Sequence record: SRR2962707_2659
Length of the DNA: 39,947 nt
Reading direction: 5' to 3' (one strand)
Both the position numbers and the translations under genes were made by a program. Positions 16,045 to 33,276 of the stretch are shown here, in pieces (within the stretch, counting starts at the first letter, position 1; each line of letters opens with the position of its first letter). The notes under the pieces were generated by a model. That model made no database searches. It saw only the letters and a program-made list of their open reading frames with translations, and had not been told where the DNA came from.

Positions 16045-16082
16045 TGCACCCACGCGAACCTGTTAGGCTGGATAGATATGAA

Positions 16083-16697
16083 ATGCCGCATAAGGGAGAG
16101 ACCGAGTTCAACAATGATCACCACAAGCAATGGAGCCTGTACGACCAGTCCGGCCACCGAAAATATCTGACAGCCAAAGAGCGCCGCGCCTTCATGGCCG
16201 CCGCTGCCGAGCGCCCCGCAGACGTGCATGCACTCTGCTGGCTTATCGCCGAAACCGGCTGCCGCCTCACGGAAGCATTGGAGCTAACCGCCGACCGGAT
16301 CGATCCAAGCCGGGGCGTCGTGATCTTCGAGAGCTTGAAGAAGCGGCGGAAAGGCATCTACCGGGCGGTGCCGGTGCGCAAGGAACTGATCGCCGCGCTT
16401 TCCAGCATCGCCCAGGGCGACAAGACCAGCGCTCTATGGAGCTGGTGCCGCATGACGGCCTACCGCCGTATCACCGAAACGATGGAGCTCGCGAAGGTCT
16501 CAGGCCCTCACGCCAATGCGCGCGGCCTCAGGCATAGCTTTGCTATTGCCGCGCTCGAAGCAGGCGTCCCGCTCAACCTCGTGCAGCGCTGGCTAGGCCA
16601 TGCAGACATGGCGACAACCGCCATTTACGCCGATGCGATTGGTACGGAAGAACGCAAATTAGCGAGCCGACTCTGGAAGGCGGAAATGGGAAAATAG
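16083..16697 (+). CDS. Small catalytic-domain tyrosine recombinase (FimB/FimE-sized invertase-like), about 204 aa
   Basis: TGCRLTE, GLRHSF, LGH, TTAIY; lacks arm-binding domain; start uncertain. Confidence 0.88.
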   Translation: MPHKGETEFNNDHHKQWSLYDQSGHRKYLTAKERRAFMAAAAERPADVHALCWLIAETGCRLTEALELTADRIDPSRGVVIFESLKKRRKGIYRAVPVRKELIAALSSIAQGDKTSALWSWCRMTAYRRITETMELAKVSGPHANARGLRHSFAIAALEAGVPLNLVQRWLGHADMATTAIYADAIGTEERKLASRLWKAEMGK

Positions 16698-16816: not shown

Positions 16817-18520
16817 TCAGAAGCGCGGCCCCGGCATCTCCCTCTCCATCTCTTTCACTTTCTCATTCTCCCGGCTGCGTTCCTCATACTCGTGGAGCGC
16901 CCGCACAAGTTGGCGTTTGTAGTCGTAGGCATAGTTGCTCGCGCGGATGGCCTTCTCCGTCACCCGTGACAGGGCTGCGGCGCGGCGCTCAAGCGCCCTT
17001 CCCAGCATCTTGTGCAAGTAGGCGTCGGTGCCGGTGCGCTGGTGGATCAGCTCAAAGTCTCGTTTGGCGATCTTCACCTGCCGGCGGCCGTCTTCGATCT
17101 TGTCGTTCCAGTGGCTAACGTCCTGCTGCGCCCTGCGCCAGCGGCTGCGCCGGTGTTTGAGGTAACGCAGAGACACTTCCGCCTTCTTGCGCGTTTCATC
17201 CTTGGCGATCCCGACATTCAGGCCGCGCAGACCTCCGGCGAGGCCGGGCTTCTCCTTGAGCATGCGGGCGGTTTCTTCAACGCCGAACTGCGCTTCCATC
17301 TTCATCCAGATACGCTCGGCCTTGGCCGGGTCTTTGAACGTGACCGTAAGCGACTCCCGGAAGCTCTCGCGCCAGCGTGTTTCAAACTTCGTCGCGCGGT
17401 CATGCCGACTGTGGGCGTAGGCCGCATCCCGCTCGGCGCGGAATAGCCGCCTCTCGCCATACCGGTAGTGCGCGTCCAGACCTTTCCAGTAGTGGACGGC
17501 CATTTGCGCGTGATCGAGTTCGGTCATGGCGTCTCTGGTCTTCTTGCGCGCGACCCGCTCTTCCGCCGCGCGAAGCCGGTCGGCGCGGCGGAGTTGCGCG
17601 GGCGTCATATTCTCGCTGCCGGGGATGGGGTGCTTGCGCTTCTCCGCCGCCACAAGTTCGTCAATCCGCGTCAACTCCCAGTCGTCAAACGTCTCGCCGA
17701 ACCGTTCCTCCAGCTCCGTAAGCCGCACACCCTTGCCCATTTGCGAAAGCTTGGCCGCTTCGTCCCCGCGCACCAGCACGAGGCCCCGACCCTTGCGCTG
17801 CAACTGGAGGCCATACGCCCCAACACGCGCGGACAAGTCGGCCCATGACGTGGCGTTGTAGAAGTGCGGGGCCACCCTCTCCCGCAGTGATTTCACATCT
17901 TCCCAGTTCATATCCGGGATGGGCGGGCGGTTGTTGCGCCGGGCCAGCCAATACTCGGCGTCCGTCACGGTGGCGCGAGTATCGCCAAAATCTTCCTGTA
18001 GCTCTTGTTCTGGGATGCGGGCTTTGTCCCGCCCGCGTTCTTTGGCGATGTTGAGGTCGCGCTCGCGGGCGATCTCGCGCACCAGCGCCGTGAGGCGCTT
18101 GCCGTCATTGTGACGGCTGTAGGCTTTGCCGGTCTGCGGATGAATCCGGTTCACTAGGAAGTGGATGTGCGGATGCTCGGTATCCCGATGGGCGTAGATC
18201 AGAGCTTGATAGTCGCTCAGGCCAAGGCGCTCGATGGCGTCAAAGGCGATCTCGCGCATGATGCCGGGGTCAACCTTCCTGGCCTTGGCGTCTTTCGGGT
18301 CGAAGGCCAGCACGAAATGGTAGGCCGGGTTGCGGCACCGCGTGGACTGGGCGGCGGTCGCCGCCATCACAGCGGCGGCGGCTTCGGGATTGTCAGTCTG
18401 AAGGTTGCGCGTCTCAACCCACTCGACGCGATCGGGGCTGAGCTTGGCGGTGTTGCCCGACAGATAAAGCGCCGATGCGCGAAAATTTGCAGGCTGCTTT
18501 TTGGGGATTTTGAAGCGCAT
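16817..18520 (-). CDS. MOBP (VirD2-like) relaxase with BID-like C-terminal region, 567 aa
   Basis: N-terminal Tyr (ALYL), YHFVLAF, HRDTEHPHIHFLVNRIHP; C-terminal KDP..PGLAGGLRG..G..K..RKKAE. Confidence 0.92.
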   Translation of the reverse strand: MRFKIPKKQPANFRASALYLSGNTAKLSPDRVEWVETRNLQTDNPEAAAAVMAATAAQSTRCRNPAYHFVLAFDPKDAKARKVDPGIMREIAFDAIERLGLSDYQALIYAHRDTEHPHIHFLVNRIHPQTGKAYSRHNDGKRLTALVREIARERDLNIAKERGRDKARIPEQELQEDFGDTRATVTDAEYWLARRNNRPPIPDMNWEDVKSLRERVAPHFYNATSWADLSARVGAYGLQLQRKGRGLVLVRGDEAAKLSQMGKGVRLTELEERFGETFDDWELTRIDELVAAEKRKHPIPGSENMTPAQLRRADRLRAAEERVARKKTRDAMTELDHAQMAVHYWKGLDAHYRYGERRLFRAERDAAYAHSRHDRATKFETRWRESFRESLTVTFKDPAKAERIWMKMEAQFGVEETARMLKEKPGLAGGLRGLNVGIAKDETRKKAEVSLRYLKHRRSRWRRAQQDVSHWNDKIEDGRRQVKIAKRDFELIHQRTGTDAYLHKMLGRALERRAAALSRVTEKAIRASNYAYDYKRQLVRALHEYEERSRENEKVKEMEREMPGPRF

Positions 18521-18523
18521 CCA

Positions 18524-19114
18524 TCACCTCCCCCCGCGTGACGGCGGCTCGTGAGACGGGCCCGGAGATTGCGCGCCCTCTTTCGGCGGCTTGCCTGCGT
18601 CCTTGTTGGCGGTTGTTGGTGCCACTGAGGCTTCATGCAGTGGCTCCAGCGCTGCGCGCATAGCTTCGAACGCTTCGTCGCGAAGCTCGCTCGGCACATC
18701 GTGGCCGCTGTTGGCCATATGCGCCAGCCGGTTGACCGTGTGCCCGGCCGTGTTGAGCGGCTCGATCTGGGCCTCGATCATCTCAGCGAGATCGTTGCGG
18801 CCCAGCAGTTGCTCCACCAACTGCCCGCCTGTGTACCGCGCCCAGCGGGCGTAGACCTCTTCGCCGGTTACGTCCGCCAGCTGCTGGAAGTTGGTCGCTG
18901 CCGATTGCAGCTCGTACAGCAGCTTCTGAAAGATGATGAGCTGCGCCGGGCGGGCGCGGGGGCGTTTACCCAGAACCGTCTCCCGCGCATAGCGCCCGAA
19001 AGGCATCCCAGCGGCGGCAGCATGGGTCTTGAACTGCGCCAGCTCCGCATCCGTGAGGCGGATATTTACAACGTGGCGGCGCCTGTCGGCCGGGCTCTTA
19101 CGCGGCCGTGCCAT
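18524..19114 (-). CDS. mobC: MobC-like ribbon-helix-helix relaxosome accessory protein, 196 aa
   Basis: VNIRLTDAE..AAAAG..YAR; between oriT and relaxase. Confidence 0.85.
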   Translation of the reverse strand: MARPRKSPADRRRHVVNIRLTDAELAQFKTHAAAAGMPFGRYARETVLGKRPRARPAQLIIFQKLLYELQSAATNFQQLADVTGEEVYARWARYTGGQLVEQLLGRNDLAEMIEAQIEPLNTAGHTVNRLAHMANSGHDVPSELRDEAFEAMRAALEPLHEASVAPTTANKDAGKPPKEGAQSPGPSHEPPSRGGR

Positions 19115-19611: not shown

Positions 19612-21153
19612 ATGCCCAGCGCCGCTGAAAAACTTGCCGATAGCCTAGAGGCCCTTCACGGGCTGCAAAAGGGTGGCAAGGTGGCGATCCGCTCGGCGGA
19701 GCTGTCACGCACCCACCGGGAACGCCTGCTCAAGGCAGGCTTCCTCAAGCCCGTCATGAAGGGCTGGTACATCCCGGCCCGGCCGGATGAGACCACCGGC
19801 GAGAGCACTGCCTGGTACGCCTCCTTCTGGGCGTTCTGCGCCACCTATCTGGCCGAGCGGTTCGGCGAGGCGTGGGTGCTGTCGCCAGAAGAGTCTCTGC
19901 TGCTGCACACCGGCAATCGCACCGTGCCGCGCCAGCTCCTTGTTCGTGCCCCGAAGGGCAAGAACAACATCGTCGCCCTGCCTCATGACACGTCCCTGCT
20001 CGATGTGAAGGCTGACCTGCCCCCAGCCGCCCTGATTGAAAAGAAGGACGGCCTCAACCTCTACGCCCTGCCCGCCGCGCTTGTCGCCAGCGGGCCCGGT
20101 TTCTACACCGCCTCCGCCAATGAGGCGCGCGCTGCCTTGGGCACCATCCGCAACGCCTCGGAAGTGCTCAGCCTTCTCCTGGAAGGCGGGCACACGAAGG
20201 CGGCGGAGCGCCTCGCCGGGGGCTTTCGCAATATCGGCAAGGCCCGTATTGCCGACGACATCGTCAAGACCATGCAGGCGGCCGGATACAACGTCCGGGA
20301 GAGCGACCCCTTTGCAGGCCCGTCGCCGATAGTGCTGCGCGACCATGAGCGTTCGCCCCACGTCGCCCGCTTGCGGCTGATGTGGCAGACCATGCGCGGT
20401 GAAATTGCGGAGCATTTCCCGCCGCCGCCCGGCAGGCCCAATGATATTGCGGCCTACCTCAAGCGCGTGGACGAAACCTACGTCACCGACGCCTACCACT
20501 CGCTGTCTATTGAAGGCTATCAGGTCACGTTGGAGCTGATAGAGCGGGTGCGCGCGGGAAATTGGAACCCCAATAACAACGAAGAAGATCAAAATCACCG
20601 CAACGCGCTTGCCGCGCGCGGCTACTGGCAGGCTTTCCAAGCCGTCAAGTTAGCCGTCGAGCGGGTGCTTCATGGCGACAATCCCGGAGAAGTCGTCGAA
20701 GCCCGGCATGGTGATTGGTACCGCGAACTTTTCGCGCCAAGCATCACCGCCGGGCTGATCAAGCCCGCTGATCTGGCGGGCTATCGCAATGCGCCGGTCT
20801 ATATCCGCAAATCCATGCACGTGCCGCCCGCTCGCGAGGCCGTGTTGGATCTGATGGAGACTTTTTTTGAGCTTCTCAGCGAAGAGCCCGCCCCCGCCGC
20901 GCGGGTGGTCCTGGGCCACTTCGCGTTTGTGTACATCCACCCCTACATGGACGGAAACGGCCGCATGGCCCGTTTCCTCATGAACACCATGCTAGCGGCG
21001 GGCGGTTATTCGTGGACGGTCATCCCCGTCACCCGCCGCGACGACTACATGGCCGCGCTCGAAGCGGCCAGCGTCGGGCAGGACATTCGTCCGTTTGCTC
21101 GGTTCATTGGAGAGCTTGTTTCAACAGCAGAGAAAAACTTGAAGAAGATATGA
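19612..21153 (+). CDS. Fic-domain protein with long N-terminal extension, 513 aa
   Basis: HPYMDGNGRMAR Fic motif; SLSIEG autoinhibitory-type motif upstream. Confidence 0.93.
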   Translation: MPSAAEKLADSLEALHGLQKGGKVAIRSAELSRTHRERLLKAGFLKPVMKGWYIPARPDETTGESTAWYASFWAFCATYLAERFGEAWVLSPEESLLLHTGNRTVPRQLLVRAPKGKNNIVALPHDTSLLDVKADLPPAALIEKKDGLNLYALPAALVASGPGFYTASANEARAALGTIRNASEVLSLLLEGGHTKAAERLAGGFRNIGKARIADDIVKTMQAAGYNVRESDPFAGPSPIVLRDHERSPHVARLRLMWQTMRGEIAEHFPPPPGRPNDIAAYLKRVDETYVTDAYHSLSIEGYQVTLELIERVRAGNWNPNNNEEDQNHRNALAARGYWQAFQAVKLAVERVLHGDNPGEVVEARHGDWYRELFAPSITAGLIKPADLAGYRNAPVYIRKSMHVPPAREAVLDLMETFFELLSEEPAPAARVVLGHFAFVYIHPYMDGNGRMARFLMNTMLAAGGYSWTVIPVTRRDDYMAALEAASVGQDIRPFARFIGELVSTAEKNLKKI

Positions 21154-21713
21154 ATTACCCGCTTGTGATCGCGCTTGGAGGATATAGCGAGTCCGGAAAA
21201 TCTTCTTCCGGGCGCTATTTTTCGACGCGTGGCTTTGCCCGCGTCAAAATCGCGACTCTCTACAAGAAGATTTATGAGCAAGTTGATACCGATCTGAGCT
21301 TTGTTGACTGGTCAAGCTGGATAGACGCCAACGATCCTAAGTGGATTGGTCGTAGGTTTGCTGAAGAACTTTGCGCTGAGTTGAGGGGCTTATCGAAAGA
21401 TTGCTGCACCATAGAAAGCCTATATGGGGATGTACTCGCTCGGGAACTCAAAGTGATATTCGGCGAGCGCTTCAAAGTGGTTTTTATCGATCTGGATTTC
21501 GATACTCGGCTCGCACGTCAAATGGAGCGCGAAGGCTTTTCTAGCATCGAAGATGCTCGCAGCTTCATCACGCCCCGAGACGAAATGAAACGTCGCTGGG
21601 GAGCCGACAAAGTGCGCGAACTTGCTGATGTAGTCGTCCGTAATGATGGAACCCTGGCCCAACTGCACGAGCGGCTGGAGGGCATTATTTCAGCCGAGCA
21701 TTCCAAGCGCTAA
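21150..21713 (+). CDS. P-loop nucleotide kinase (dephospho-CoA/NMP kinase-like), 187 aa
   Basis: GYSESGKS Walker A; R..R lid; RD.....G....AD.V.NDGTL tail; ATGA overlap with fic. Confidence 0.8.
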   Translation: MNYPLVIALGGYSESGKSSSGRYFSTRGFARVKIATLYKKIYEQVDTDLSFVDWSSWIDANDPKWIGRRFAEELCAELRGLSKDCCTIESLYGDVLARELKVIFGERFKVVFIDLDFDTRLARQMEREGFSSIEDARSFITPRDEMKRRWGADKVRELADVVVRNDGTLAQLHERLEGIISAEHSKR

Positions 21714-21843
21714 GACGGGCGTCTGGCGCAGCAAACGCACCCAACGATGATGATACCGTCGTCATCATGATGATGATCGTCGTGATCAACTCATTTGCGA
21801 TAGCAAAGGAAAGGCGACTTCAGATAGAAGCCGCCTCGATCCG

Positions 21844-22044
21844 CTAGGCATTTTCACGAAGCACCACGGCGCGTAGATCATGCTGCTCGCCTTCGCACGG
21901 GCCGTTGTTTGGCAGTTTGCCACTGGCAAACATCTCCACTGCGGCAGCTTCGGCGCTTTGAGCGTCCAGCGCTTTGATGCGGTACTGGTAGACCACCAGT
22001 TCCTCCACGGCGAAGGTGAACGTCTGTTCGTTCTGATTATCCAT
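21844..22044 (-). CDS. Small hypothetical protein, 66 aa
   Basis: AAGGA RBS; follows DUF736 on same strand. Confidence 0.6.
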   Translation of the reverse strand: MDNQNEQTFTFAVEELVVYQYRIKALDAQSAEAAAVEMFASGKLPNNGPCEGEQHDLRAVVLRENA

Positions 22045-22078
22045 GACAGAAGTCCTTTCTTTCTGTTGAGGGACAACC

Positions 22079-22105
22079 GCCGCCCGGCGGTGAACCGGGC
22101 GGCGT
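22079..22105. terminator. GC-rich hairpin after DUF736 gene
   Basis: CGCCGCCCGG-CGGTGAA-CCGGGCGGCG; no clear U tract. Confidence 0.45.
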
Positions 22106-22115
22106 GTCGCGAGGG

Positions 22116-22409
22116 TTAGCGTTTCCAGGTGAGGACGAACTTGTCGTCTTCGCCTTCGAAGAGGCTGGCGTAGATCGGGCCTGTGAAGCTCGGGTCATCC
22201 AGCTTGAGGCTGATGAAGGGCTTGTCCTTCTTCGAGGTGCGGTTCCACGCCGCGCCCAGTTCCGCGTCCCCAGCCATGATCCGAAAATCCGGCGCACCTG
22301 CCTTGTCGCTGTTGATGGGAACCAGCGTGACCTCGGCCTTGATTGTCAGCGTCTTGATTTCGCCGGTGTAGCCGTTGTCGGTTTTTGTGAATGTTCCGAT
22401 GATCGTCAT
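22116..22409 (-). CDS. DUF736 family protein, 97 aa
   Basis: IIGTF..Y.GEI.TL, APDFRI, ELGAAW, SLKLDDPSF..PIYASL; AGGAG RBS. Confidence 0.9.
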   Translation of the reverse strand: MTIIGTFTKTDNGYTGEIKTLTIKAEVTLVPINSDKAGAPDFRIMAGDAELGAAWNRTSKKDKPFISLKLDDPSFTGPIYASLFEGEDDKFVLTWKR

Positions 22410-22439
22410 GTTTCAATTCTCCTTTGTCTGTTTCCGGGG

Positions 22440-22681
22440 CCGCCCCATGCGGCCTTTCCGATGGCCGACCGAGAGCACGCGGACCTGTGCGGTGGAGACA
22501 CCCGAAGGGCGAAGCGCAGCGGCAGACCGGCAGCCGCCTGCTTTTTGGAGCGCAGCGATCGCGAGGAAAGCGCCGCGCCGCCAAAGGCGGGGCAAGCTGG
22601 GGAAAAAGCTGGCGGATGCCGGTTGGCTCCACCGCCGCCGCGTGCAGGGATGCCATGAAAAGGAAAGGCCGCATGGAGCGG
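22440..22681. promoter_or_regulatory. Structured leader upstream of DUF736 (candidate ssDNA promoter / ssi)
   Basis: 20-bp outer inverted repeat 22440-22459 / 22662-22681 (19/20) enclosing inner hairpins. Confidence 0.55.
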
Positions 22682-22901
22682 ACCTGTCAGCCAAAGGACG
22701 AAACAGGTGCGGCCACTCGGGTCATGAATCTGACGACGGCGGAACCCGGCTCCGGCTCAAACGCTAGTACGGGCAATCGAGAGAGAGGTTTTCAATGCTA
22801 TCTTCCAGATACGACGCTGCGCGCCAATCCAAGAGGCTGAATTTTCATTGCTGAAAAAAGGAACCCCTCGCGTTGAGATCGAGGAGGTCAATTCACCCTA
22901 T

Positions 22902-23792
22902 CTACATGGGCCGCCATACATATGTTCTGATTTGCTTCTCTTCAGCTTCGAAGCCGAGATTCTTGTGGATCGATATGGAAGGTACGTTCTCTATGTCGAT
23001 GATAGACGCTGACACTCGAAAGCCACGCTCTCTCTGCGCTGAAACTTGGTCATGCAAAGTAGCCGAGCCTATGCCCAAGCAACGCATCGACGTGCTAACG
23101 CCAATATATGTGTTCCAAGCAACTGAATGCTCCGAGTCAAAGCTCTCGCCAACACACGCGATCATCTCTTCTTTATCGTAGTAACAAGAAAAATTTTCCG
23201 ACACGCAATCAAAAATACCCATCGACAACTCAAGCCGGTCCTTTCTATCAGCTGTTTCCTGTATCAGCCTCGATAGGCAATCCGGGGACACATATGACTC
23301 AGAGCGCTTATCGAACTTCTGAAGCAGAAAATCACTCTCTGTTTCCGGAATACTCTTCTCTTGCAGATTCAAGTTGTATTGCCTTCTTGTCGCTAAAAGC
23401 TCGAATCCTGCCTGGCAAAGGCTTTCGATCCAAAGAGAACGCTCAGAGAAGTCCGTACCCTTCATGCTGCATTCGATCAGCTTTCTGTGTTCTAACTGCA
23501 CAAGCCGCTTCACATAACTCAAAACACTCGCGTAAACAGAAATTTGCGAAGCGTCACTACAGTTTGAAGCAATGGTGGGCCACCATATTGTTATTGATTG
23601 ACTATCGAGCTCGATTGAAAAACGCGCAACGACCCCCCCTGCATCCTTGACAACCACTCGGCGAATGCTCGAATCTTGCAAAATGGATTCAAGCACTTCC
23701 GCCTTGGCTTGCTCAGGCCGATCAAAGCCTATCGCTAGCCAAGCCTGATAGTTTTGGGGCGTAATCTCGACGAAGCTGTATTCCAATAACAA
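22902..23792 (-). CDS. GNAT acetyltransferase (probably tandem GNAT), about 296 aa
   Basis: YIGVSTSMRCLGIGS (motif A), N.PS..IHKNLGF (motif B); second ..AGF motif mid-protein; TTG start. Confidence 0.85.
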   Translation of the reverse strand: MLLEYSFVEITPQNYQAWLAIGFDRPEQAKAEVLESILQDSSIRRVVVKDAGGVVARFSIELDSQSITIWWPTIASNCSDASQISVYASVLSYVKRLVQLEHRKLIECSMKGTDFSERSLWIESLCQAGFELLATRRQYNLNLQEKSIPETESDFLLQKFDKRSESYVSPDCLSRLIQETADRKDRLELSMGIFDCVSENFSCYYDKEEMIACVGESFDSEHSVAWNTYIGVSTSMRCLGIGSATLHDQVSAQRERGFRVSASIIDIENVPSISIHKNLGFEAEEKQIRTYVWRPM

Positions 23793-23801
23793 TCTCCAAA
23801 A

Positions 23802-24680
23802 ATGAAATCATACAAGTTAAATCCATCCGTCCGAATAGACGCAGATCAACTCCCCACACTGTCATTCAATTGCGGGGGCGCCACCTCTTACCTAAATTTG
23901 GACAGCACTAAACAAATTAACATTTTGTACGATATGGCGTCTACGGATTATTTTTCCGTCGATGAAAACGGTTATTGCCCGGAACTCAATAGAACTATCG
24001 AAAAAAGTGTCGTAGAAGATTTGCTCAGTAGCGGACTTCTCGCAGAAAAAGGTTCGGCGCATCCAATTAAATTCGATGAGAAAAGTGAAGTCGCCTGGCA
24101 ACTCTTCGAACAGAAGAAGCTTCTCAATTATGACTTAGCGCGCACGGCTGTCGATCTCCCTCAAATCGGAGAGCATGTTTTTGTTTATGACAATTTCTTT
24201 TTGCGCGAGGTGCGCCAGAAAATACTCTCGTGGGTGACGCAACTCCCATTTCGACGAATAGATGTGGACCGAGAAGACACAACAGAATACGCACATTATA
24301 TACATGTGCTAAGCCCAGCGTCGCTCTTGGTTCAATCACTGCCGTTCACGCGAGCAATCCATCAATTTCTCTGTGCTAATTTTGGCGTGGCAGAAGCACA
24401 TCTTGCACGGGCGCATGTATATGCAGGCAGCATGGCTGACGCCTACTTCGAACACACCGACGGCGAGTCTCTCACCTCAGTATATTACCCCGGAGATTGG
24501 ATGGAAGATTGGGGAGGAGAGCTACTATTGAAGGCCGGGAACGAACACTTTCATGCCTTCTCACCAACAAGAGGACGCCTACTTGTGTTCCCGGGCCATA
24601 TCCCCCATCGAATTGGGGCGATTAGCGTCAATGCAAAACGCCCACGTTTTAGCATTGTGCTTCGTTATGCGCTTCACTGA
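23802..24680 (+). CDS. 2OG-Fe(II) oxygenase (prolyl-hydroxylase-like) with N-terminal extension, 292 aa
   Basis: HTD, W..DWGGEL, GRLLVFPG.IPH, RFS. Confidence 0.88.
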   Translation: MKSYKLNPSVRIDADQLPTLSFNCGGATSYLNLDSTKQINILYDMASTDYFSVDENGYCPELNRTIEKSVVEDLLSSGLLAEKGSAHPIKFDEKSEVAWQLFEQKKLLNYDLARTAVDLPQIGEHVFVYDNFFLREVRQKILSWVTQLPFRRIDVDREDTTEYAHYIHVLSPASLLVQSLPFTRAIHQFLCANFGVAEAHLARAHVYAGSMADAYFEHTDGESLTSVYYPGDWMEDWGGELLLKAGNEHFHAFSPTRGRLLVFPGHIPHRIGAISVNAKRPRFSIVLRYALH

Positions 24681-25552
24681 AGTATTCTTTCAATCTCTTC
24701 AGTAACAACGTCCATCGCATCATCAGACAATCTCTTGTCTGCCAATATTCTATCTACAATGTGCCTTGCTTGCTCTCGTCGTGTGGTTACGGGTGACGCA
24801 GGAACAATGTCCGGCACGAGATCAAAGGCATCTAGAGGGAGCTCAAAGGGTATTTCGGAAGGAGAAATCAACTCCATCAGAGAGATGAAGTGATAGTAAG
24901 AAATTCCCTTCCAACCGAAAGCAAGCGAAAGCGATTCCTCCAGAGTCTCCCCTTCGTGCGGGAAAAATGGTGGAATATAGAGAACGTCTCCCGCCGACAA
25001 CTCACAGTCTATCAGCGGCTCTGCCTTCGGCTTCGTAAATGAATAAATATCATTTGGGCGGCTTTCAATAATTCGGCGTCTTTGCTCCGAAGGAACAAAA
25101 GCGGCATCCCAAACACGCCACCGTCGCTTGCCGGCGGCTTGCACAATAAAGGCATCCTCATGCCCAGCATGGTATCCAATGCCGGAACCCACCGTCGAGT
25201 ATGTCGCGACGATGTCGTCCACTCGCCATGAAAACGGCACCTGCAGCCCGTCTCTGAGTACCGCTAACTCCGGGCATACCCTCTCTAGCGCGTTCAGAAG
25301 AACAGTATATTTCCCTCCCGTCCGAACTAATCGGTCAAAGACCAGAACAACATCAACACCCTCAATGAGCCGCGCTGTAGGCATGTCAGTAATCTCGCTG
25401 CATCTGCCATGTTGCGCAAACACTCGCATGTAAGGCGACAGCGTCACCCACTCTCGATAGAGATTAAGGGGAAACAGAAAACTGGGCGCGCAATCAATGC
25501 CACCCCGAATTAAATGGGGCACCTTTCGCCAGTACCGAGCGTCATAGACCAC
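24674..25552 (-). CDS. JmjC/cupin_4 oxygenase, YcfD(RoxA)-like, with HxG instead of HxD, 292 aa
   Basis: YWRK.P.LIRG, WRVDD, GIGYHAGHEDAFIVQAAGKRRW, L.AGDVLYIPPFFPHEG. Confidence 0.88.
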   Translation of the reverse strand: MVYDARYWRKVPHLIRGGIDCAPSFLFPLNLYREWVTLSPYMRVFAQHGRCSEITDMPTARLIEGVDVVLVFDRLVRTGGKYTVLLNALERVCPELAVLRDGLQVPFSWRVDDIVATYSTVGSGIGYHAGHEDAFIVQAAGKRRWRVWDAAFVPSEQRRRIIESRPNDIYSFTKPKAEPLIDCELSAGDVLYIPPFFPHEGETLEESLSLAFGWKGISYYHFISLMELISPSEIPFELPLDAFDLVPDIVPASPVTTRREQARHIVDRILADKRLSDDAMDVVTEEIERILQ

Positions 25553-25635
25553 ACCACGCTCTCCCTCACGGATTCACTTTAAGCCCTAGTGCAATCAACA
25601 CTGAGCGTTTCGTAGGCTCATGACCTAGATACTTA

Positions 25636-25923
25636 CTAGGATGAACCAAGCTTCTTCAAAGCTGCAGCAAGTCGAGTGTGATCAGCACGAGCCTCCAACA
25701 ATTTGGCTACATCACGTGCAGTAATTTTCGGATCATCTCTCCAAGTCTTTGAGAGAGCATACATATCGAGCACATTGAACAGATCGGGATCAGCGTCCTC
25801 CAACCGACGCATATCGATTTTTCCAGACGTATCCAGCGCTCTATCAAGCCTGCCTTCTATTTCAGCCGATTTTGCATTGATTCTCGCTTCAACCTGAGCA
25901 GCATAGTCATCAGAGTTCGCCAT
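25636..25923 (-). CDS. Small helical protein of unknown function, 95 aa
   Basis: Strong GGGAGGA RBS before ATG 25923; co-oriented upstream of JmjC gene. Confidence 0.75.
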   Translation of the reverse strand: MANSDDYAAQVEARINAKSAEIEGRLDRALDTSGKIDMRRLEDADPDLFNVLDMYALSKTWRDDPKITARDVAKLLEARADHTRLAAALKKLGSS

Positions 25924-25986
25924 GATGTCCTCCCGATGCATAAAAGTCGCGCGCAATAGGATATTCTCAACACCGTTGATTTCAAG

Positions 25987-26592
25987 ATGAAACAAATGGA
26001 TTGGCTGAAATGTGTTGACGACTTTCTACCGAGAGAAGTCATTTCGGAAGCGTACGGAATATTCTCAAATGCAATGCTTCCTCCGGGTACCACATACATC
26101 CGACCAGAAAACCTCAACAGCCCTGCTAGCTATTCGAATTGCAAAAGCACAATCGCCTTATTCTTTTTAGAGTTCGCCGCTAGAGCATTGGAGGCCGCCC
26201 AATTAGATAGCTGGACCCAATTTGAAGTTTGGACAAATCGCTCCACTCATTGCTCTGACCATGTTGACTACCACTTAGACAACAACGAAGAACTTCGTCG
26301 TCAGACGCAAAAAATTGAAACGCCGAAGTGTGGTTTCATTCTCTACCTTGGCCCAGATAGTAGCGGAATAGGTGGCACCTACTTCAATCCGCCTATTGTC
26401 AGCCCCGAGGCTGACAAGAACCTCTTTCGTCATCCTCGAATGGAAGATGTGACAACAACGTCCGGCATCTACATACCATTCAATGTCGGCAGATTAGTCG
26501 TATTTGACGGCCGCGCCCCGCATTGCGTTGTCCCATTTTCTCATAGTCCAAAGGGGACAAGGGTCGCCTTACTTGGGAACGCTTGGGCATAG
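25987..26592 (+). CDS. 2OG-Fe(II) oxygenase, 201 aa
   Basis: VDDFLP, EVW.N, YHLD, ILYL..GGT.F, GRLVVFDG..PH.V, R.ALLGNAW. Confidence 0.85.
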   Translation: MKQMDWLKCVDDFLPREVISEAYGIFSNAMLPPGTTYIRPENLNSPASYSNCKSTIALFFLEFAARALEAAQLDSWTQFEVWTNRSTHCSDHVDYHLDNNEELRRQTQKIETPKCGFILYLGPDSSGIGGTYFNPPIVSPEADKNLFRHPRMEDVTTTSGIYIPFNVGRLVVFDGRAPHCVVPFSHSPKGTRVALLGNAWA

Positions 26593-26871
26593 ACGCACCG
26601 CCAGCCGCCCGCAAAGGGCGTAAAGCGCGGCGGCACAACACGGGAGCGAAGCGAACGGAGCGGGCCGTGCCGCCCGGCGACCTTTGGCCGCCGTCGGCCT
26701 CCGGCATAAGCTGAACCCGGGAGGCCAACGCGCCGCAAAGCAGGCGCACCAAAACAAAAAGCCGGTCACTCGTGACCGACTATCACCGGGGCGTTGCGGG
26801 GTGCCCCCGCTCGAAGGGGTGACGGAAAACGCTGCAAGCGGTTGCAGGCAGGGGAAGGCCTTCCCCACAAA

Positions 26872-28131
26872 TCAGAAATTAAACGGGGCCTGATTCAGCA
26901 ACGGCCTAGTGCGCACGAATACATTACAATGCCGAATGGCCCGCGTGACCCCATTGTAGAGCAAACGCGCCTTTTGCTCGTCACTCCCCCTAACTCCCGG
27001 TGGCCACAGCAACACAACATGATCGAATTGACGGTTCTTGGCCTGATGAATGGACATCACGGGAATGCCGTGGGTTTGCTGGTATCCATAGGCCCTGTGG
27101 TGTGCCGCCTTGCGCTCTACCAATTCGCTCAACTCAGCAACGCTCCAAGAAGCTCGACCTTGTGCTTGAACCGCTTTGACAATCGCATTTTGTACGCTCG
27201 AAACCCACGGTGGAGGGTCAACGATTGCCGCCAGTCTATCCAAAGCCACACTGGTATCTAATGCTCCCATCCCGTCGAACGCGGCAAGAACTGCCTGCTT
27301 CTCTTCATTGTTCCGATCCTCGTGGATGAGTTTCAGAGGAGCGATGATTCCGTAACCCTTCGACTGCATACCCTGAGCTGCGCGTGCAATGATCTCATCT
27401 GCCCAACTGCGCCCCGAAGGGCCATAGATTAGAGCCCTAGTTCCTGCTACGCGCGACAGAGACGACACCACGGCAAACGGCATGACATTCTTGAATTTGT
27501 GCTCAATCCTGAGACCGTCACCAGATTGCGGCGATTGAAGATTCCGAAGCGCAACCCCTGCTTCAAGAAGACCTTGCTTCCCCGTCCGCCGAACAACGTT
27601 CAGAGTATCCACCCTACCCGTCGCGAACCATTCCAAAAATGGTGCCGTATCAAGTCCCTCATCCAGACATTGAAATTCGTCAGCCGCTACGAAAAGTGCG
27701 ACGTACGGCGCAAGAGCCTTGAGAATTCGCAATCGCTCAGGTTTCAACTCCTGAGCTTCGTCGACGACAATCACCGGAAAGGTACGCGCTACCCATTCGG
27801 CAATGACGGGGACTTCGAGCAGTTGACCGCAAATATCACAGGTCTGGTCGAAGCCGTCCGCCTGAAGACCGTTTGCAGCCGCGAATGAGCACCATCTTTG
27901 AAGGACCGACTGCGCGAAGCTGTCGATCGTCAGGCAGACGGCCTTCCCCCTCATAGCAGCAATATCGCGGAAACGACCGTCGAGCCGCTTTCGTGACCCG
28001 TGCATAAAGGTGAGTGCCAGCACACGCTGGTGCGGTTGCAGCGGACGCTGCACCAGATACTGCCCGACCTCTTCAATAAGTCGGTGCGTCTTGCCGGTGC
28101 CCGCCGGGCCTTCAAATCCTCGGAACGGCAT
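26872..28131 (-). CDS. UvrD-like SF1 helicase (Gabija GajB-like), 419 aa
   Basis: GPAGTGKT, LTF, TIDSF, DEAQE, D.FQ, SIHQAKNRQFD, YNGVTRA; overlaps OLD gene by 20 nt. Confidence 0.88.
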   Translation of the reverse strand: MPFRGFEGPAGTGKTHRLIEEVGQYLVQRPLQPHQRVLALTFMHGSRKRLDGRFRDIAAMRGKAVCLTIDSFAQSVLQRWCSFAAANGLQADGFDQTCDICGQLLEVPVIAEWVARTFPVIVVDEAQELKPERLRILKALAPYVALFVAADEFQCLDEGLDTAPFLEWFATGRVDTLNVVRRTGKQGLLEAGVALRNLQSPQSGDGLRIEHKFKNVMPFAVVSSLSRVAGTRALIYGPSGRSWADEIIARAAQGMQSKGYGIIAPLKLIHEDRNNEEKQAVLAAFDGMGALDTSVALDRLAAIVDPPPWVSSVQNAIVKAVQAQGRASWSVAELSELVERKAAHHRAYGYQQTHGIPVMSIHQAKNRQFDHVVLLWPPGVRGSDEQKARLLYNGVTRAIRHCNVFVRTRPLLNQAPFNF

Positions 28132-29935
28132 CGTTGAAGGTCCAAGTTTTTGTTTTACCGCTTTGGCTCGTTACGCTGGCCGCCCATTCATCAGGCACAT
28201 TCCTATCCATGGCAATCGATGCAACCACATTCAGTAGGTGAGCAACACGAGCGCAGCATCGTGGCTTTGCCGAAATTGCATCAGCAATGAGCCCATGAAG
28301 CACTTCGTCGCTCTTATGAGCTCTCTCGGCAAGGAAAGCAGGAAAATCGTCCACATTCGCTGGCAATTCGTAAGGGGCCAGTTCGGCATCCCGAAGGATG
28401 CTGTCATCAGCTGCAAGTACCCAGCCGATGATATGTTCCATCGTCCATCCGTCTGGCCAGATCACGACGCGGGCTGGCGGCTCGGCTTTGGCGGCGAGTG
28501 CGGCCGCATAGCCTTTACCCTGCTGATCGCCATCGACGAGACAAGTAAGCATTGGGTGCACGCCGTGGAGTTCATCAAACACCTCGGCAATCCGGGCATC
28601 CTTGGTCGGTATCGTACCTATCTCGTGCGTAAAACTAACGAGGCTATCTTCTGTGGCCGAGATATCGGCCACACGCGCCAGAAGGCGTAGCCAATTGGCA
28701 TCCGTCTTGCCCTCAGGGATGACAACTGCCGGGTTCATAATAGCGGTGACAGTTGCATCTCTGTCAGACAGAAACAGTCCACGCTGCGGGCTGGTCGCGT
28801 TTGTGCCGAGCGGGGCTGCGAGAAGCCGCGAAGCGGTCAAGCACCCAGCATCATTTGCCAAAAGGACCAGCTGATGAGGGCCAGGTACGGCGGCCACAGT
28901 GGGCGAATGTGTTGTAACGATGGTTTGGGACGCGTGCTTCTGCATCAAGTGCAGCAGGCGCCGCTGCTGTGGGGGCGGGATATGCAGCTCCGGCTCCTCG
29001 ATACACATGAGGAAGTTTTCGCCACTTGCCGTGCGCAAAGCACCAAACCGCATCAGCAGTATCAGCGTCTGAAGCGAAATCAGGCCGCTGCCGTGCCTAC
29101 GAGAGGGAAGTGGCATCTGACCGCCTTCAGAGAAATGTGGAATGACCGCTTCGAGCACACCTTCGCTGTCTGTTGAAGTCAGGCGGAGCTTGAGTTCCGT
29201 CTGACGGCCAAAAAGGCTGACAATGTCCTTGTTCACCTCGTCAATGAGAGGCTTCATTTTTTCGTCTTCTTCAAGCGGTGCCTCGGGATTACGCAATCTA
29301 TCCCGTTCTTCGAGAACGGCTTCGGCCGGCTTTCCACCAACGTAGGTTACCGCACGGCGAAACAGTTCCGACCCAAAGGAAATCATCCTGTCCCAGGTCC
29401 GGCTTGCCGGTACGAGAAAGAAACCCAGCTCCTTGATTAGAGCTATGGGAATCTGAGTGATGTTTGCATCATCTGCAAACGGGTCGCCCTGCTCCACATC
29501 GTCGAGAAAGTAGCGGATGCTCTCAACCTCAAGACTCGCATGATCAAAGCGAGCGCAGAAGGCGATTTGACAAACAAGAAAGTCGTCTTCGGTTTGCTTC
29601 GCCGCCGAAAGGGTACCGTGGGTAGGGTTGATCCACTTGGGAACCGCACGACCTGCACGAAACCATTCCGGGTGACGGGCAGGATCATTGGGGGAAAACT
29701 CGGAAATGGTCGCAACAATTTTTATGCGGTCCGCCGCCTCAGGACATGATCCATAGAAATCATGTTCGGTCAGGGAGCGGACGAGACGATCACGTCCAAA
29801 CAGGAGTGCAAGGGACTCGATAATCGTGGTCTTGCCGGAATTATTCGGCCCGATCAGCACGGTGAAGTCACCGAAAGTGACTTTACCCGATTTTATGCCT
29901 CTGAACCCCTCAACCTCGATTGCGTGAATGCGCAT
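28112..29935 (-). CDS. OLD-family ABC-ATPase/TOPRIM nuclease (Gabija GajA-like), 607 aa
   Basis: FRGI, GPNNSGKTT, GSG, IEEPELH, TTHSP, TOPRIM EGKTD and DGD. Confidence 0.92.
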   Translation of the reverse strand: MRIHAIEVEGFRGIKSGKVTFGDFTVLIGPNNSGKTTIIESLALLFGRDRLVRSLTEHDFYGSCPEAADRIKIVATISEFSPNDPARHPEWFRAGRAVPKWINPTHGTLSAAKQTEDDFLVCQIAFCARFDHASLEVESIRYFLDDVEQGDPFADDANITQIPIALIKELGFFLVPASRTWDRMISFGSELFRRAVTYVGGKPAEAVLEERDRLRNPEAPLEEDEKMKPLIDEVNKDIVSLFGRQTELKLRLTSTDSEGVLEAVIPHFSEGGQMPLPSRRHGSGLISLQTLILLMRFGALRTASGENFLMCIEEPELHIPPPQQRRLLHLMQKHASQTIVTTHSPTVAAVPGPHQLVLLANDAGCLTASRLLAAPLGTNATSPQRGLFLSDRDATVTAIMNPAVVIPEGKTDANWLRLLARVADISATEDSLVSFTHEIGTIPTKDARIAEVFDELHGVHPMLTCLVDGDQQGKGYAAALAAKAEPPARVVIWPDGWTMEHIIGWVLAADDSILRDAELAPYELPANVDDFPAFLAERAHKSDEVLHGLIADAISAKPRCCARVAHLLNVVASIAMDRNVPDEWAASVTSQSGKTKTWTFNDAVPRI

Positions 29936-29944
29936 CCTGCCCCC

Positions 29945-31255
29945 TTACTGCATTGTCGTTGTTATCCTTGTCCGCATGGCGTCGCCAATCGACCCAGCAA
30001 TTTCGGCCGGAAAGTCCTTTGGCATGGCTTTGACAGCACGCTCCAAAGCTGCATCGGCGCTATCGGCCAAAGTAGCGAATACCTCTTCGACCTTTTCCTC
30101 TTCCACACCTGCCGCCTTGGCGTTTTGCAGAAAATGGCGCGGCATGATTTCGTCAATCGGATAGTGACGCTTGTCGCCAACAGCCATAGCAAGGCGAAAC
30201 TCCTTCCGCTGGAGTTGTTTTGCTGCGTAGTTCGGCTGCGTGGACATGATGTCGTAGAGCGGGGTCATCCGGTAGCGGCCACCCGGCGTGAGGAAGAGGC
30301 TGAAGTTCTTGGCGTGGCCGTCAGGCGCACCAATCAGCCAGAAAATGATCTGCGCCTTGAGAAAGGCGAGACGGTCTTCTTCGGCATAGTCACTACCGTT
30401 GAGCAGGTTGAGGCATTCCCGAATCCCGGGGCCACCGTCACTGTTGTACTTGATGGTTGGCGGCACGGAGAGTGCCTGGCAGAAATCCTCCTGCGGCACT
30501 CGTAGCAGGCGTCCATCGCTGGCCTTTAGGCGGTCAAAACGCTCAACCGCCAAAACGCGCACGTCGTCGAAATTGACAATCTGGCTTTGCGCCACGTCGA
30601 GGCCCAGCTCCCGGCAGAGGGTGAGGCAGAAATGCTCGTTCTCAACGCTCAGAGTCATATCGAGCCCGTTGGGCAACTTACCCAGCTCGGGCTTCAGAAT
30701 ATGTGTGGTGGGCGTCGCACCCTTGGGCAGGCACCAGCCATTATCCCAAAGCAACGCGGTTTTCTCCTGTGCCCCGGCAATAGAGATGCGCAGTTCCCGC
30801 TCACCATCCGGGCGAATGCCCAAGGGCACGGTGGCGAGATTTCTGATGATATCGGCAACGTCGGCATCGCTGAGGGGCGCGCACTCCGGCGGTCCCGGCG
30901 GGGTGATATCGCCCCCTTCAGGCACAAACTGCAATGCACCGACACAATCACGGCCGATCTTATTGAGAAGGCTGAAGGCGTCCGTCCCTTCTGCACCGAC
31001 CTTCTCGGCGACCTTGCGCCGGATCTGGTCGTTGTCTGGAAGGAGGTTGTCGAAGAAGGCTGAAACTTCCGCCCCGGAATAGCGCTCTTCTCGCAGCGGC
31101 AAGGAAAGTGAAACCGGAATGGCACGTCGCTCGTCTGCAAGCCATCCTGCGTCGTAGACAAACGAAACGGCACCATTGGCAGCGCGATCCAGCACGCCAA
31201 CGAGCCGCCCGTTGAGGGCGACCGAAAGACGAGCGCTCTTGCGCGCGCGGGCCAT
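29945..31255 (-). CDS. hipA: HipA kinase toxin, 436 aa
   Basis: SLSLPL, FFDNLLPD, SIAGAQEK, PTTHILKP, NEH, VERFDR, QEDFCQ, DGHAKNFS, PLYD. Confidence 0.97.
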   Translation of the reverse strand: MARARKSARLSVALNGRLVGVLDRAANGAVSFVYDAGWLADERRAIPVSLSLPLREERYSGAEVSAFFDNLLPDNDQIRRKVAEKVGAEGTDAFSLLNKIGRDCVGALQFVPEGGDITPPGPPECAPLSDADVADIIRNLATVPLGIRPDGERELRISIAGAQEKTALLWDNGWCLPKGATPTTHILKPELGKLPNGLDMTLSVENEHFCLTLCRELGLDVAQSQIVNFDDVRVLAVERFDRLKASDGRLLRVPQEDFCQALSVPPTIKYNSDGGPGIRECLNLLNGSDYAEEDRLAFLKAQIIFWLIGAPDGHAKNFSLFLTPGGRYRMTPLYDIMSTQPNYAAKQLQRKEFRLAMAVGDKRHYPIDEIMPRHFLQNAKAAGVEEEKVEEVFATLADSADAALERAVKAMPKDFPAEIAGSIGDAMRTRITTTMQ

Positions 31256-31635: not shown

Positions 31636-33276
31636 TCACTTCGACACACCTCCCTCATCATCGAGAGGGTAGAGAATGTCCCTGTAGGGCGGGGGTAAAG
31701 CCGCCGAAGTAGAGGCGGGTAGCGAAGCAAGATTGGCCCCCTGCAAGGGCCGCGACAATGCGGAGCCCCCAGAGCTGCTTAGCTGCACCGACACTTCCGA
31801 AAGCGGGTGCTTGATGAAATGCTGCTTGAGAGCATCCGCAATACCCTTTTCCTTACTCGTGCTCGCCAGTTTCAACACCGCCTGACCATCCTTCCAGTCG
31901 ATTGGCGCCTTGGTTCGCTTTGCCTTTTCACTCTGGAGAAGTGACAAAGCAGCGGGCTCTATCGTACCGGAGGTCCAAATTTCAAAACGGTGTTCAGCCT
32001 CACGGAACCTGTCATGGCCGCGCAGGTAGGCGCGAATAGTCGGAATCTTCTCCAGCCATTCATTGACCTCCCCAATCGTCAAAACGCCGCCAGGCTCCTT
32101 GCCCTTACACTCAATGGCAGTGATTGAGGCCGATTGATGTGTCACCTTCAGAACATCAATTTCGGCTGGCTTTCCGGTTTGCGGGTCTTTGGCCATCACA
32201 TTCATGTCGATGGATACGGCATCGCAACGGGCCAGATAGCCCGCCACAAGCTCGAAAAGGACTCCTCGGAGATTCCCATTTCGCCCCTCGATCTCAAGGA
32301 GGTTGTCCATAAGGGACATGAGCCGCTCAGGGCTGGAAGAGGCATACGCCGCAGCATTTTTCAGCACTTCCATCAGGGAGGCGATGGCAGCGCCGACCCG
32401 TTTGCCGAACAGGTCCTTCGGCGTTGCCATGAGAACACCGGCAGCATGACCTGCTGTAAGCGCGGCACCTGAAAACTCATCAGCAACGATGATGGACAGA
32501 ACGCCGATATCCTTAAGGGTAGATTTCAGCATTCTAGCTTTGCGGACAAAGTACTGGACTTCATTCGCTCCAAGCCTGCCTTCGGCGAACACATCGGCCA
32601 CCACAAAGCCCGGCTTACCAGGCCCCAGAAGCGGCAAGAGATAGCTTGGTCCCGCGAGATCAAATGCAAATGGACCGATGGGTTTCAATTCAGGCTCGCC
32701 GCGCACTCGCACAGTGTTAAAGCTGACTAGGCCAATCTTCCGCGCCCACTCCCGAATACCATCAAGTAGAATACGCTCCGTCAGGTCACGCGCCCTTAGT
32801 CCTGTTAGCGAAGCGTTCGCCAATGACATCGGCAATTCGTAATGAGCTACATTGTCGAAATAAACTTCGCGCACGAAGCCAGCTCTAAGCAGCCGTTTGG
32901 CTACCACCTCGACAGATAGTTGTCCTTCCACAGGAATAAGAGGCGCAGAGCTAATGACCGGAAAATCATCCTTCCGTATGAGACCCCCTCGGGCAATCAT
33001 GCCATCAATGGCGATGCCGAAAACCGACCCAGTTGCCCTCAGGTCTCTCATGAAGTTGGCCCAGAAGCGTTCGCTGTTCCGATCCTTCTCGAGGTAAAGA
33101 AAAGCTTCACGCTTTGGCAGCATAGCAATAGGAAATCGCCGAACAGGCATCGGCGCACGCGATATGCGCTGACGCGCCGCCTCCGCCGTCAAGCCAGACG
33201 CGATCAAGGCCTCCGCAACTAACGAAGACCGCGAAGGACCATGTTCCGAGAGGTACTGTTTTATCTGATACGCCAT
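31636..33276 (-). CDS. Hypothetical protein with C-terminal PD-(D/E)xK nuclease-like domain, 546 aa
   Basis: G.LFE....EIDVL....IECK; N-terminal HTH-like segment. Confidence 0.7.
   Translation of the reverse strand: MAYQIKQYLSEHGPSRSSLVAEALIASGLTAEAARQRISRAPMPVRRFPIAMLPKREAFLYLEKDRNSERFWANFMRDLRATGSVFGIAIDGMIARGGLIRKDDFPVISSAPLIPVEGQLSVEVVAKRLLRAGFVREVYFDNVAHYELPMSLANASLTGLRARDLTERILLDGIREWARKIGLVSFNTVRVRGEPELKPIGPFAFDLAGPSYLLPLLGPGKPGFVVADVFAEGRLGANEVQYFVRKARMLKSTLKDIGVLSIIVADEFSGAALTAGHAAGVLMATPKDLFGKRVGAAIASLMEVLKNAAAYASSSPERLMSLMDNLLEIEGRNGNLRGVLFELVAGYLARCDAVSIDMNVMAKDPQTGKPAEIDVLKVTHQSASITAIECKGKEPGGVLTIGEVNEWLEKIPTIRAYLRGHDRFREAEHRFEIWTSGTIEPAALSLLQSEKAKRTKAPIDWKDGQAVLKLASTSKEKGIADALKQHFIKHPLSEVSVQLSSSGGSALSRPLQGANLASLPASTSAALPPPYRDILYPLDDEGGVSK

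Follow-up and report, generated by a model that had tools for sequence, protein, structure and literature searches.

Sequence record SRR2962707_2659, a stretch of 39,947 nucleotides hereafter called the window, carries at positions 22902 to 26592 a block of five genes that, in our judgment, probably constitutes a self-contained mobile module resembling the biosynthetic machinery for peptides that the ribosome makes and that are then post-translationally modified (RiPPs), with a small protein as its substrate. The open reading frame (ORF) listing shows that the block is tiled completely by five ORFs, which encode an acyltransferase (A), a prolyl-hydroxylase-like Fe(II)/2-oxoglutarate (2OG) oxygenase (B), a JmjC oxygenase related to the ribosomal oxygenase RoxA (C), a small protein (D) and a second, shorter Fe(II)/2OG oxygenase (E). 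Pfam and profile comparison bore out the inventory of the original prediction, made from the sequence alone, of one GNAT protein, three Fe/2OG enzymes and a 95-residue protein. Our reading rests on the constancy with which D accompanies C in related loci, on the changing set of enzymes found around this pair, and on the concentration of conserved residues in a single predicted loop of D.

A clade profile of 28 short-form JmjC proteins was used to fetch 25 DNA loci, ten from genome_contigs (5 in the clade of C), 14 from metagenome_contigs (9 in the clade) and one, also in the clade, from viral_contigs. The five window proteins and the extra genes of loci L002, L003 and L005 were mapped by tblastn onto all 25. 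D lies directly upstream of C or nearby in 11 of the 15 clade loci (L001, L002, L003, L005, L011, L013, L014, L015, L016, L018 and L025). The other four (L004, L012, L017 and L019) begin inside the gene upstream of C, a radical S-adenosylmethionine (radical SAM) gene, so that D is unscorable there and the pairing holds in 11 of 11 testable loci. Eight RoxA-like loci (L006-L010, L020-L022) have no D by tblastn. Loci L023 and L024 were excluded from these counts, L024 being a weak match (E 7e-4, 23% identity). L023 (2002-2481) was dropped as a clade locus: at the contig end its 28-residue JmjC match forms an in-frame fusion with a signal-peptide protein that is unrelated, and it is probably a chimeric metagenome assembly. 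The five clade loci from genome_contigs come from metagenome-assembled genomes labelled Thermoleophilaceae, Pyrinomonadaceae, Chitinophagaceae, Polyangiaceae and a proteobacterium, and by these sequences the pairing of D with a JmjC protein recurs across several bacterial phyla.

The entire arrangement of the window is found again in the metagenome locus L011, where E(-), D(+), C(+), B(-) and A(+) keep the same order and orientation with identities of 36, 50, 44, 34 and 22%, respectively. In the remaining loci the partners of the D-C pair change: D, C, B(-) and E(-) in L013, L014 and L015; D, C, E and B in L003; E(-), D, radical SAM, PqqD, C, B(-) and A(-) in L016; D, radical SAM, PqqD, radical SAM and C in L001, with the same order preceded by A in L002; radical SAM, C and A in L004 and L012, followed in L012 by TfuA and YcaO; and D and C only in L005, L018 and L025. 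B and E are both present in L003, L011, L013, L014, L015 and L016, and homologues of A adjoin the JmjC gene in 6 of the 15 clade loci. L001 and L002 each encode two B12-radical-SAM proteins, with B12-binding and Radical_SAM domains by Pfam, together with PqqD (PF05402, 8e-10), and a separate PqqD gene is found in four of the 15 clade loci (L001, L002, L016, L017). Among the accessory genes (radical SAM, PqqD, YcaO, TfuA) none reaches the NCBIfam cut-off for a named system. The YcaO and TfuA genes of L012 (3516-5403, minus strand) were confirmed by Pfam and match models for McrA-glycine thioamidation at 1.4e-57 and 3.8e-36, both below cut-off, which suggests that L012 holds a version of this system with thioamidation. 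No protease or transporter adjoins the cluster in the window or in the 15 clade loci, as judged from the tblastn map and from Pfam scans of flanking DNA. The original prediction was to be given up if the genes were not syntenic elsewhere; since they are, it stands on this count, and its proposal that the enzymes act on the small protein gains strong comparative support from the 11 of 11 pairing, from L011 and from the relatives with PqqD, B12-radical-SAM, YcaO and TfuA.

D begins at an ATG with GGGAGG 5 nt upstream, while the longest frame, from a TTG start, would encode 119 aa. No family match was found in Pfam, NCBIfam, PADLOC or PHROGs. The AlphaFold2 (AF2) model of D is all-helical (pLDDT 90.8, pTM 0.77) and presents the segment S58-K59-T60-W61-R62-D63-D64-P65 as a predicted exposed loop between helices 3 and 4. 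A family profile built from nine D sequences picked out 55 of 1.84 billion representative proteins with E<=1e-3, and 39 with E<=1e-10; a single one of the 55 falls outside the length range of 73-153 aa. By the sequences covered, this is a rare family. In an alignment of 51 sequences, numbered from Met, the T60-x-R62-D63 loop holds the best-conserved residues of the family: R62 is kept in 50, T60 in 47 (with Ser in the other 4) and D63 in 46, and K59 and P65 are each found in 37. Elsewhere L48 is kept in 49 of 51, and A78 and A88 in 46 each. The N-terminal third is variable, the helices on both sides of the loop motif are conserved, and the protein has neither a variable C-terminal core nor a recognizable cleavage motif. 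Searches with the predicted fold gave no Foldseek match at E<=1e-3 in PDB or BFVD, no usable match in ESM Atlas, and a best VIA-align Z of 5.4, within the noise range for helical models. No fused or longer forms of D were found in the 269-2000 aa range that was searched, which is weak evidence on this point. Lys-rich N- or C-terminal tails with a net charge of +11 or more are present in 12 of 51 homologues and hint at nucleic-acid binding in part of the family; window D itself has no such tail. The tails of P0083, P0094, P0095, P0097, P0107 and others are Lys/Ala/Pro-rich and histone-H1-like, with net charges of +11 to +22.

The second constant component, C, matches JmjC_2 (PF08007, E 5.4e-21), and its AF2 model (pLDDT 88.3) has the YcfD-type L16 arginyl hydroxylases 4csw and 4ccl as top Foldseek matches; by sequence profile the best matches are 4ccl and 4lit (E about 5e-23). 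The profile alignment with YcfD (4ccl) equates H128 and H199 with the two His ligands and places G130 at the metal-binding Asp, within the motif H128-A-G130-x-E132-D133. In place of the H-x-D...H iron triad of RoxA/YcfD, 28 of 28 aligned clade members have H-A-G, and the string G-I-G-[YF]-H-A-G-x-E-D is common to window C and all 15 clade loci; six RoxA-like loci carry H-[YI]-D-[EQ]-Y-D at the iron site. Relative to RoxA, Asp at +2 has become Gly and Tyr at +4 an invariant Glu (E132) in the clade. The His at +3 in C varies across the clade (His, Asn, Arg or Ala) and is unlikely to be an iron ligand, because it is not conserved. On this pattern, the carboxylate may have been relocated to E132, or two His may be the only protein ligands of the site.

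The clade is also distinct from RoxA in size and domain content. With RoxA membership taken to mean a PF20514 winged helix and a total length of about 370-390 aa, C has no such domain at its C-terminus and falls about 80 residues short of RoxA. A word-indexed search with C retrieved 64 proteins, of which 35 (P0002-P0036) form a short-form group at 36-53% identity with only PF08007 or PF13621; the clade members P0001-P0036 measure 161-319 aa, and the RoxA-type matches from P0037 onward are mostly 371-413 aa, mostly with PF20514. A 17-sequence tree separates the D-linked JmjC proteins from RoxA as a single clade (100/100), within which window C groups with L011 (85/67). A tblastn search of C against plasmids and phages returned only partial RoxA-like matches, with no record covering >=80% of C.

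All four enzymes retain cofactor motifs, C with Gly at the Asp position. The GNAT match of A is modest in the window (PF00583, E 2.6e-4, 21.7 bits against a cut-off of 20.7) and reaches 1e-11 for its homologue in L002. A profile of six A homologues matches solved GNATs, among them phosphinothricin acetyltransferase (5e-10), Naa30 and RimI; the acyl-CoA motif R/Q-x-x-G-x-G/A is kept in 6/6, and the N-terminal ~190 residues have no family match. B matches 2OG-FeII_Oxy_3 (PF13640, E 1.5e-6, 29.5 bits; cut-off 27) and, below that model's cut-off, the NCBIfam FlmC-family 2OG oxygenase (1.8e-15). Its profile matches the putative hydroxylase 9blq (9e-9), PHD2/EGLN1 (the HIF prolyl hydroxylase), Pseudomonas 4iw3 and prolyl 4-hydroxylase, and H218-x-D220, H269 and R282 are invariant in seven of seven members. 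The extra N-terminal domain of B, of ~115 residues, has no Pfam match in any of these seven, and hhalign comparison with a PqqD profile gave E 0.016 at a probability of 2.8%. E falls below the PF13640 cut-off (0.0032), has no solved relative by sequence profile and is aligned to the B profile by hhalign with 97.3% probability (E 2.3e-11), the HxD, His and Arg in register. It lacks the N-terminal domain of B, and H96-x-D98-N-D-E, P-H179 and R192 are invariant in 6/6.

The mechanism that we propose builds on what was observed, namely the gene content, the catalytic motifs, the pairing of D with C, the variable accessory enzymes and the mobile context. D would be ribosomally made, fold into a small helical bundle and expose the loop S-K-T60-W-R62-D63-D-P, where C would bind and oxidize a side chain. 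The most likely reaction of C would be C-3 hydroxylation of Arg62, by analogy with the action of RoxA on uL16, and beta-hydroxylation of Asp63 would come second, on the model of AspH, an enzyme with two His ligands. B and E would probably add further hydroxyls, for example at Pro65, and A would probably acylate an amine, either Lys59 or the N-terminus. In other loci the tailoring of this D-C core would fall to B12-radical-SAM enzymes and a PqqD chaperone, or to YcaO/TfuA. The product probably remains in the cell as a folded, multiply modified protein, an intracellular fate that we propose because no examined locus encodes a protease or exporter. For the mobile element such a protein might serve in defense, counter-defense or competition, although this is a guess from context. 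The substrate role of D, the identity of the modified residues and every chemical step are thus what we infer, rather than what was seen.

Two observations agree with the modification of D by C: among solved structures C comes closest to arginyl hydroxylases that act on proteins, and the best-conserved residue of D is the loop Arg. RiPP families typically combine a constant precursor and a class-defining enzyme with variable tailoring, and the D-C loci behave likewise; by analogy, D looks closer to a modified ribosomal protein or to methyl-coenzyme M reductase (MCR) than to a leader-core RiPP precursor. Other considerations weigh against this reading. The window copy has no PqqD or other recognized peptide-recognition domain, and the basic chemistry of C is uncertain because the canonical metal-binding carboxylate is absent, with Gly at the Asp position. 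D looks folded in its model rather than built of leader plus core, so that a role for it as adaptor, regulator or inhibitor of C is also conceivable. With 15 clade loci, of which L016 and L017 are apparently one sequence from sister assemblies, the sample is small, and the binding, expression and modification of D are put forward here as predictions.

Among the alternatives, a classical RiPP pathway would make D a precursor: a protease with its gene at another site would excise the modified loop region, and the small bioactive peptide so released would be exported, perhaps as an antibiotic of benefit to the mobile element. The hallmarks PqqD, B12-radical-SAM and YcaO/TfuA of the relatives would suit this, as would the variable N-terminal third of D, which resembles many leaders, and the JmjC hydroxylases that act in biphenomycin RiPP pathways. 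We nevertheless hold it to be unlikely: the conserved motif lies mid-protein between conserved helices, the whole of D is predicted to fold, the protein lacks the variable C-terminal core and cleavage motif noted above, and neither a protease nor a transporter adjoins any copy of the cluster. Less likely again, in our view, is that the enzymes target host or phage proteins, the ribosome or nucleic-acid-bound proteins in defense or counter-defense, with D as an adaptor, sensor or inhibitor of the JmjC enzyme. The setting speaks for such a role, as the window copy lies on a conjugative element with Gabija, DISARM, SoFic, HipA and ArdC, and relatives occur with a serine recombinase, ArdA and a methylase (L011), TniQ (L014), ISL3 (L018) or on a viral contig (L025). 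The Lys-rich tails of 12 of the 51 D homologues, suggestive of nucleic-acid binding, point the same way, and there is a precedent in HXS, described as an antiphage system with a radical-SAM-matured effector (PMC13128918). On the other side, no PADLOC model matches A, C, D or E and B has only a weak 2OG match, L001 and L002 have no mobile-element gene in the 8 kb examined, and the accessory enzymes vary while D and C persist; the tailoring of one substrate fits this combination of changing enzymes and constant D and C better than a fixed external target does.

The original prediction had also invoked halogenation, and C as a JmjC-fold Fe/2OG halogenase that chlorinates or brominates D is an improbable but specific version of that idea. 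Its attraction lies in the Gly that replaces the metal-binding Asp in all 28 aligned members, in the window and in 15/15 loci, giving the H-x-G/A...H pattern of Fe/2OG halogenases. However, the facial-triad carboxylate is replaced by Gly or Ala in the hydroxylases AspH and FIH D201G as well as in the halogenases SyrB2, CytC3, WelO5 and AmbO5; AspH, with two His, did not show activity as a halogenase, and the FIH variant D201G remains viable as a catalyst (PMC6817910). Because two-His enzymes include hydroxylases as well as halogenases, halogenation is possible and not indicated. The invariant E132, in place of the RoxA Tyr at +4, could moreover act as a relocated carboxylate, and the halogenation claim is not supported in the form in which it was made. 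We give very little credence to a small-molecule pathway, in which the substrate of the oxygenases and the GNAT protein would be a metabolite or a free amino acid, with D an unrelated or regulatory gene. Pathways of self-resistance and of metabolites derived from amino acids commonly include Fe/2OG oxygenases and GNATs, and the best NCBIfam matches of A are small-molecule acetyltransferases, all far below cut-off. Yet proteins are the targets of those relatives of C and B whose substrates are known, D is the sole gene that always accompanies C, related loci carry the PqqD peptide chaperone, and no nonribosomal peptide synthetase (NRPS), polyketide synthase (PKS), ligase or exporter is present.

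The proposed modification of D by C and its partners has parallels in several characterized systems. RoxA/YcfD (PDB 4ccl, 4lit, 4csw) is a ribosomal oxygenase and the 3-hydroxylase of uL16 Arg81. C shares its JmjC_2 double-stranded beta-helix and both His ligands, and RoxA modifies an Arg of a folded protein, as is proposed for C; C differs in having H-A-G-x-E-D rather than H-x-D-x-Y-D, in lacking PF20514, in forming a separate clade and in being encoded next to a small-protein partner in every testable locus, unlike RoxA. With the two-His Fe/2OG enzymes C has in common the Gly in place of the triad carboxylate. AspH acts on EGF domains. To our knowledge SyrB2, CytC3, WelO5 and AmbO5 have not been described as JmjC_2 ribosomal-oxygenase relatives, and we know of no invariant Glu at +4, as in C, in AspH, FIH D201G or these halogenases. 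MCR is modified on a folded-protein loop by YcaO/TfuA (thioglycine) and by a B12-radical-SAM enzyme (C-methylation). The same enzyme families recur here, L012 included with its sub-cut-off thioamidation matches, while the present system differs in its bacterial hosts, its mobile elements, its dedicated 95-residue protein and its constant Fe/2OG oxygenases.

BipG, BpmG and PbsQ are JmjC/cupin oxygenases that hydroxylate ribosomal-peptide side chains in biphenomycin pathways (PMC12707348, PMC12257519). Some of our related loci, like those clusters, place a JmjC oxygenase alongside B12-radical-SAM enzymes; the biphenomycin clusters are set apart by gene content, being organized around an MNIO enzyme together with an arginase, a peptidase of the TldD type and a short precursor that bears the motif AFHAFRF, none of which is found here. 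An mSystems paper makes the passing remark that bacterial JmjC homologues occur in RiPP-like contexts (PMC12710340). In the antiphage system HXS, the effector HxsA is matured by the radical SAM enzymes HxsB/HxsC with HxsD (PMC13128918). If our module serves a mobile element, the two would share the enzymatic maturation of a ribosomally made protein; HXS uses radical SAM enzymes only, on a periplasmic substrate with His-Xaa-Ser repeats and a peptidoglycan-binding domain, and we saw no sequence relation.

What is new would be the D substrate family and the JmjC clade, and what is of a known kind the RiPP-like or protein-modification chemistry; the original interpretation as a whole is partly supported. 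No description of the D family with the JmjC clade was found in open-access papers and bioRxiv, a coverage that stops short of subscription journals and supplements. The papers on BipG/BpmG/PbsQ, on bacterial JmjC proteins and on HXS describe neither this precursor family nor this JmjC clade, and nothing relevant was found in the FlmC literature. If D is the substrate, the oxidation of protein side chains would gain a substrate family and a JmjC clade that are both new; the clade in any case presents a natural Asp-to-Gly change at the iron site. All of these elements can be joined into a bolder proposal, which we offer tentatively and think rather doubtful as a whole. It would define a new class of modification systems, in the style of those acting on ribosomal proteins, in which a dedicated folded protein of ~95 residues is decorated at an invariant T-x-R-D loop by a clade of JmjC enzymes whose iron site has been rebuilt (either the carboxylate has moved, or the two His stand alone, which could make this the first JmjC-fold halogenase), with interchangeable tailoring sets (prolyl-hydroxylase-like enzymes and GNAT; B12-radical-SAM and PqqD; YcaO/TfuA), the modified protein acting as an intracellular defense or counter-defense effector. 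An effector role would explain carriage by integrative, conjugative and viral elements. If D is indeed the substrate, RiPP-type enzymes (Fe/2OG, GNAT, B12-radical-SAM, YcaO) would modify a folded protein rather than a leader-core peptide, and such chemistry would be linked to mobile elements and defense islands.

The block itself is compact. A and B are divergent across a 9-bp gap, B and C converge with a 7-bp overlap, D lies upstream of C on a shared strand, and E is divergent from D (Table 1). As the original prediction had described, the block is lower in GC than its surroundings, at 0.454-0.532 in 500-base windows from 23001 to 26500, where the adjacent windows of that size have 0.576-0.590 (left) and 0.626 (right), and it contains no protease, transporter, NRPS or PKS gene, its neighbors being DUF736 and GajB/GajA. 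The description of both flanks as structured held for the left only. There, directly upstream of the DUF736 gene (22410-22720, minus strand), lies a ~300-nt near-perfect long hairpin (z -5.2) with nested inverted repeats (22437-22459/22662-22684 and 22489-22504/22620-22635) and a folding energy of -90 kcal/mol as single-stranded DNA; the right flank folds no more strongly than shuffles (z -1.4). The hairpin may serve the conjugative element as a single-strand promoter or in the manner of an origin; alternatively, it may represent a structured RNA. We found no convincing direct or inverted repeats flanking the block that would represent insertion scars, no Rfam match within 21500-27500, and no near-identical DNA among PLSDB plasmids or complete E. 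coli genomes. Promoter-like sites are not more frequent in the region than in shuffles, which lends little weight to the one that precedes D and C.

Table 1. Positions of the block genes and of other features in the window.
Feature	Coordinates	Strand	Length	Remarks
A	22902-23792	-	296 aa	two-domain acyltransferase, GNAT at C-terminus
B	23802-24680	+	292 aa	prolyl-hydroxylase-like Fe(II)/2OG oxygenase with extra N-terminal domain
C	24674-25552	-	292 aa	JmjC_2, RoxA-like (ribosomal-oxygenase-like) Fe/2OG enzyme
D	25636-25923	-	95 aa	small protein, predicted all-helical; proposed substrate
E	25987-26592	+	201 aa	short Fe(II)/2OG oxygenase, paralogue of B catalytic domain
Promoter-like site	25958-25985	-		TTGAAA, 16 nt, TATCCT; upstream of D and C; 9/12 consensus matches
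Tyrosine recombinases	159-1349, 15978-16697, 37040-38209			one only 239 aa
DISARM-like set	1764-12581	-		DrmA 1.7e-91, DrmB 1.9e-12, methylase
DrmB-like	1764-3905	-
DrmA-like helicase	3912-8228	-	1438 aa
Protein with no family match	8156-10813	-	885 aa
Eco57I/N6 DNA methylase	10800-12581	-
Type IV coupling proteins (two)	13010-14560, 34915-36603
Relaxase with NikA	16817-19114
SoFic-like Fic protein	19612-21153	+	513 aa
DUF736	22116-22409
GajB-like UvrD helicase (Gabija)	26872-28131	-	419 aa
GajA (Gabija)	28112-29935	-	607 aa	PADLOC 3.4e-42
HipA	29945-31255
ArdC	33483-34487

Family and PADLOC scans depict the window as a patchwork of mobile-element and defense genes, in which the block, borne by a conjugative element, has DUF736 on one side and Gabija on the other. 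On the DUF736 side the flank is similar to plasmids of alphaproteobacteria (66-68% identity). Mobile-element hallmarks were found in six of 16 copies, namely in the window and in the fetched flanks of L011 (a large serine recombinase, an M78 peptidase, a DNA methylase, ArdA and Replic_Relax), L014 (TniQ), L016 (DUF2924), L018 (an ISL3 transposase) and L025, an IMG/VR contig with a serine recombinase and DUF2924. Several other clade loci are too short for this context to be judged, and L001 and L002 have no mobile-element gene within the 8 kb examined. An enrichment of the module on mobile elements is best regarded as an impression. PADLOC-DB 2.0 gave no match for A, C, D or E, and the weak match of B (1.9e-5) is to a CRISPR-associated 2OG model. 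In L005 (3700-12500), the D-JmjC pair of the proteobacterial genome lies among ORFs without family matches, one of which encodes an acidic (D-D-L-G)n repeat of some length, and has as neighbors a DUF4062 protein and an ORF of 1090 aa that is helicase-like; these surroundings may be a prophage or defense island.

Several further observations concern the window at large. The DISARM-like set adjoins the first of the tyrosine recombinases. The SoFic gene overlaps the start of a P-loop kinase-like ORF with a weak CoaE match (E 3.4e-4), and the two, which together span 19612-21713 (plus strand), may form a two-gene unit. The GajB-like helicase is unusually short when set against PADLOC GajB models of about 470-635 positions. 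Two large ORFs of 546 and 406 aa (31636-33276 and 38583-39803, minus strand), without Pfam or PADLOC match, lie among HipA, ArdC and a recombinase. With two coupling-protein and three tyrosine-recombinase genes within 40 kb, the window seems to hold integrative elements that are nested or in tandem, and not a single clean integrative and conjugative element.

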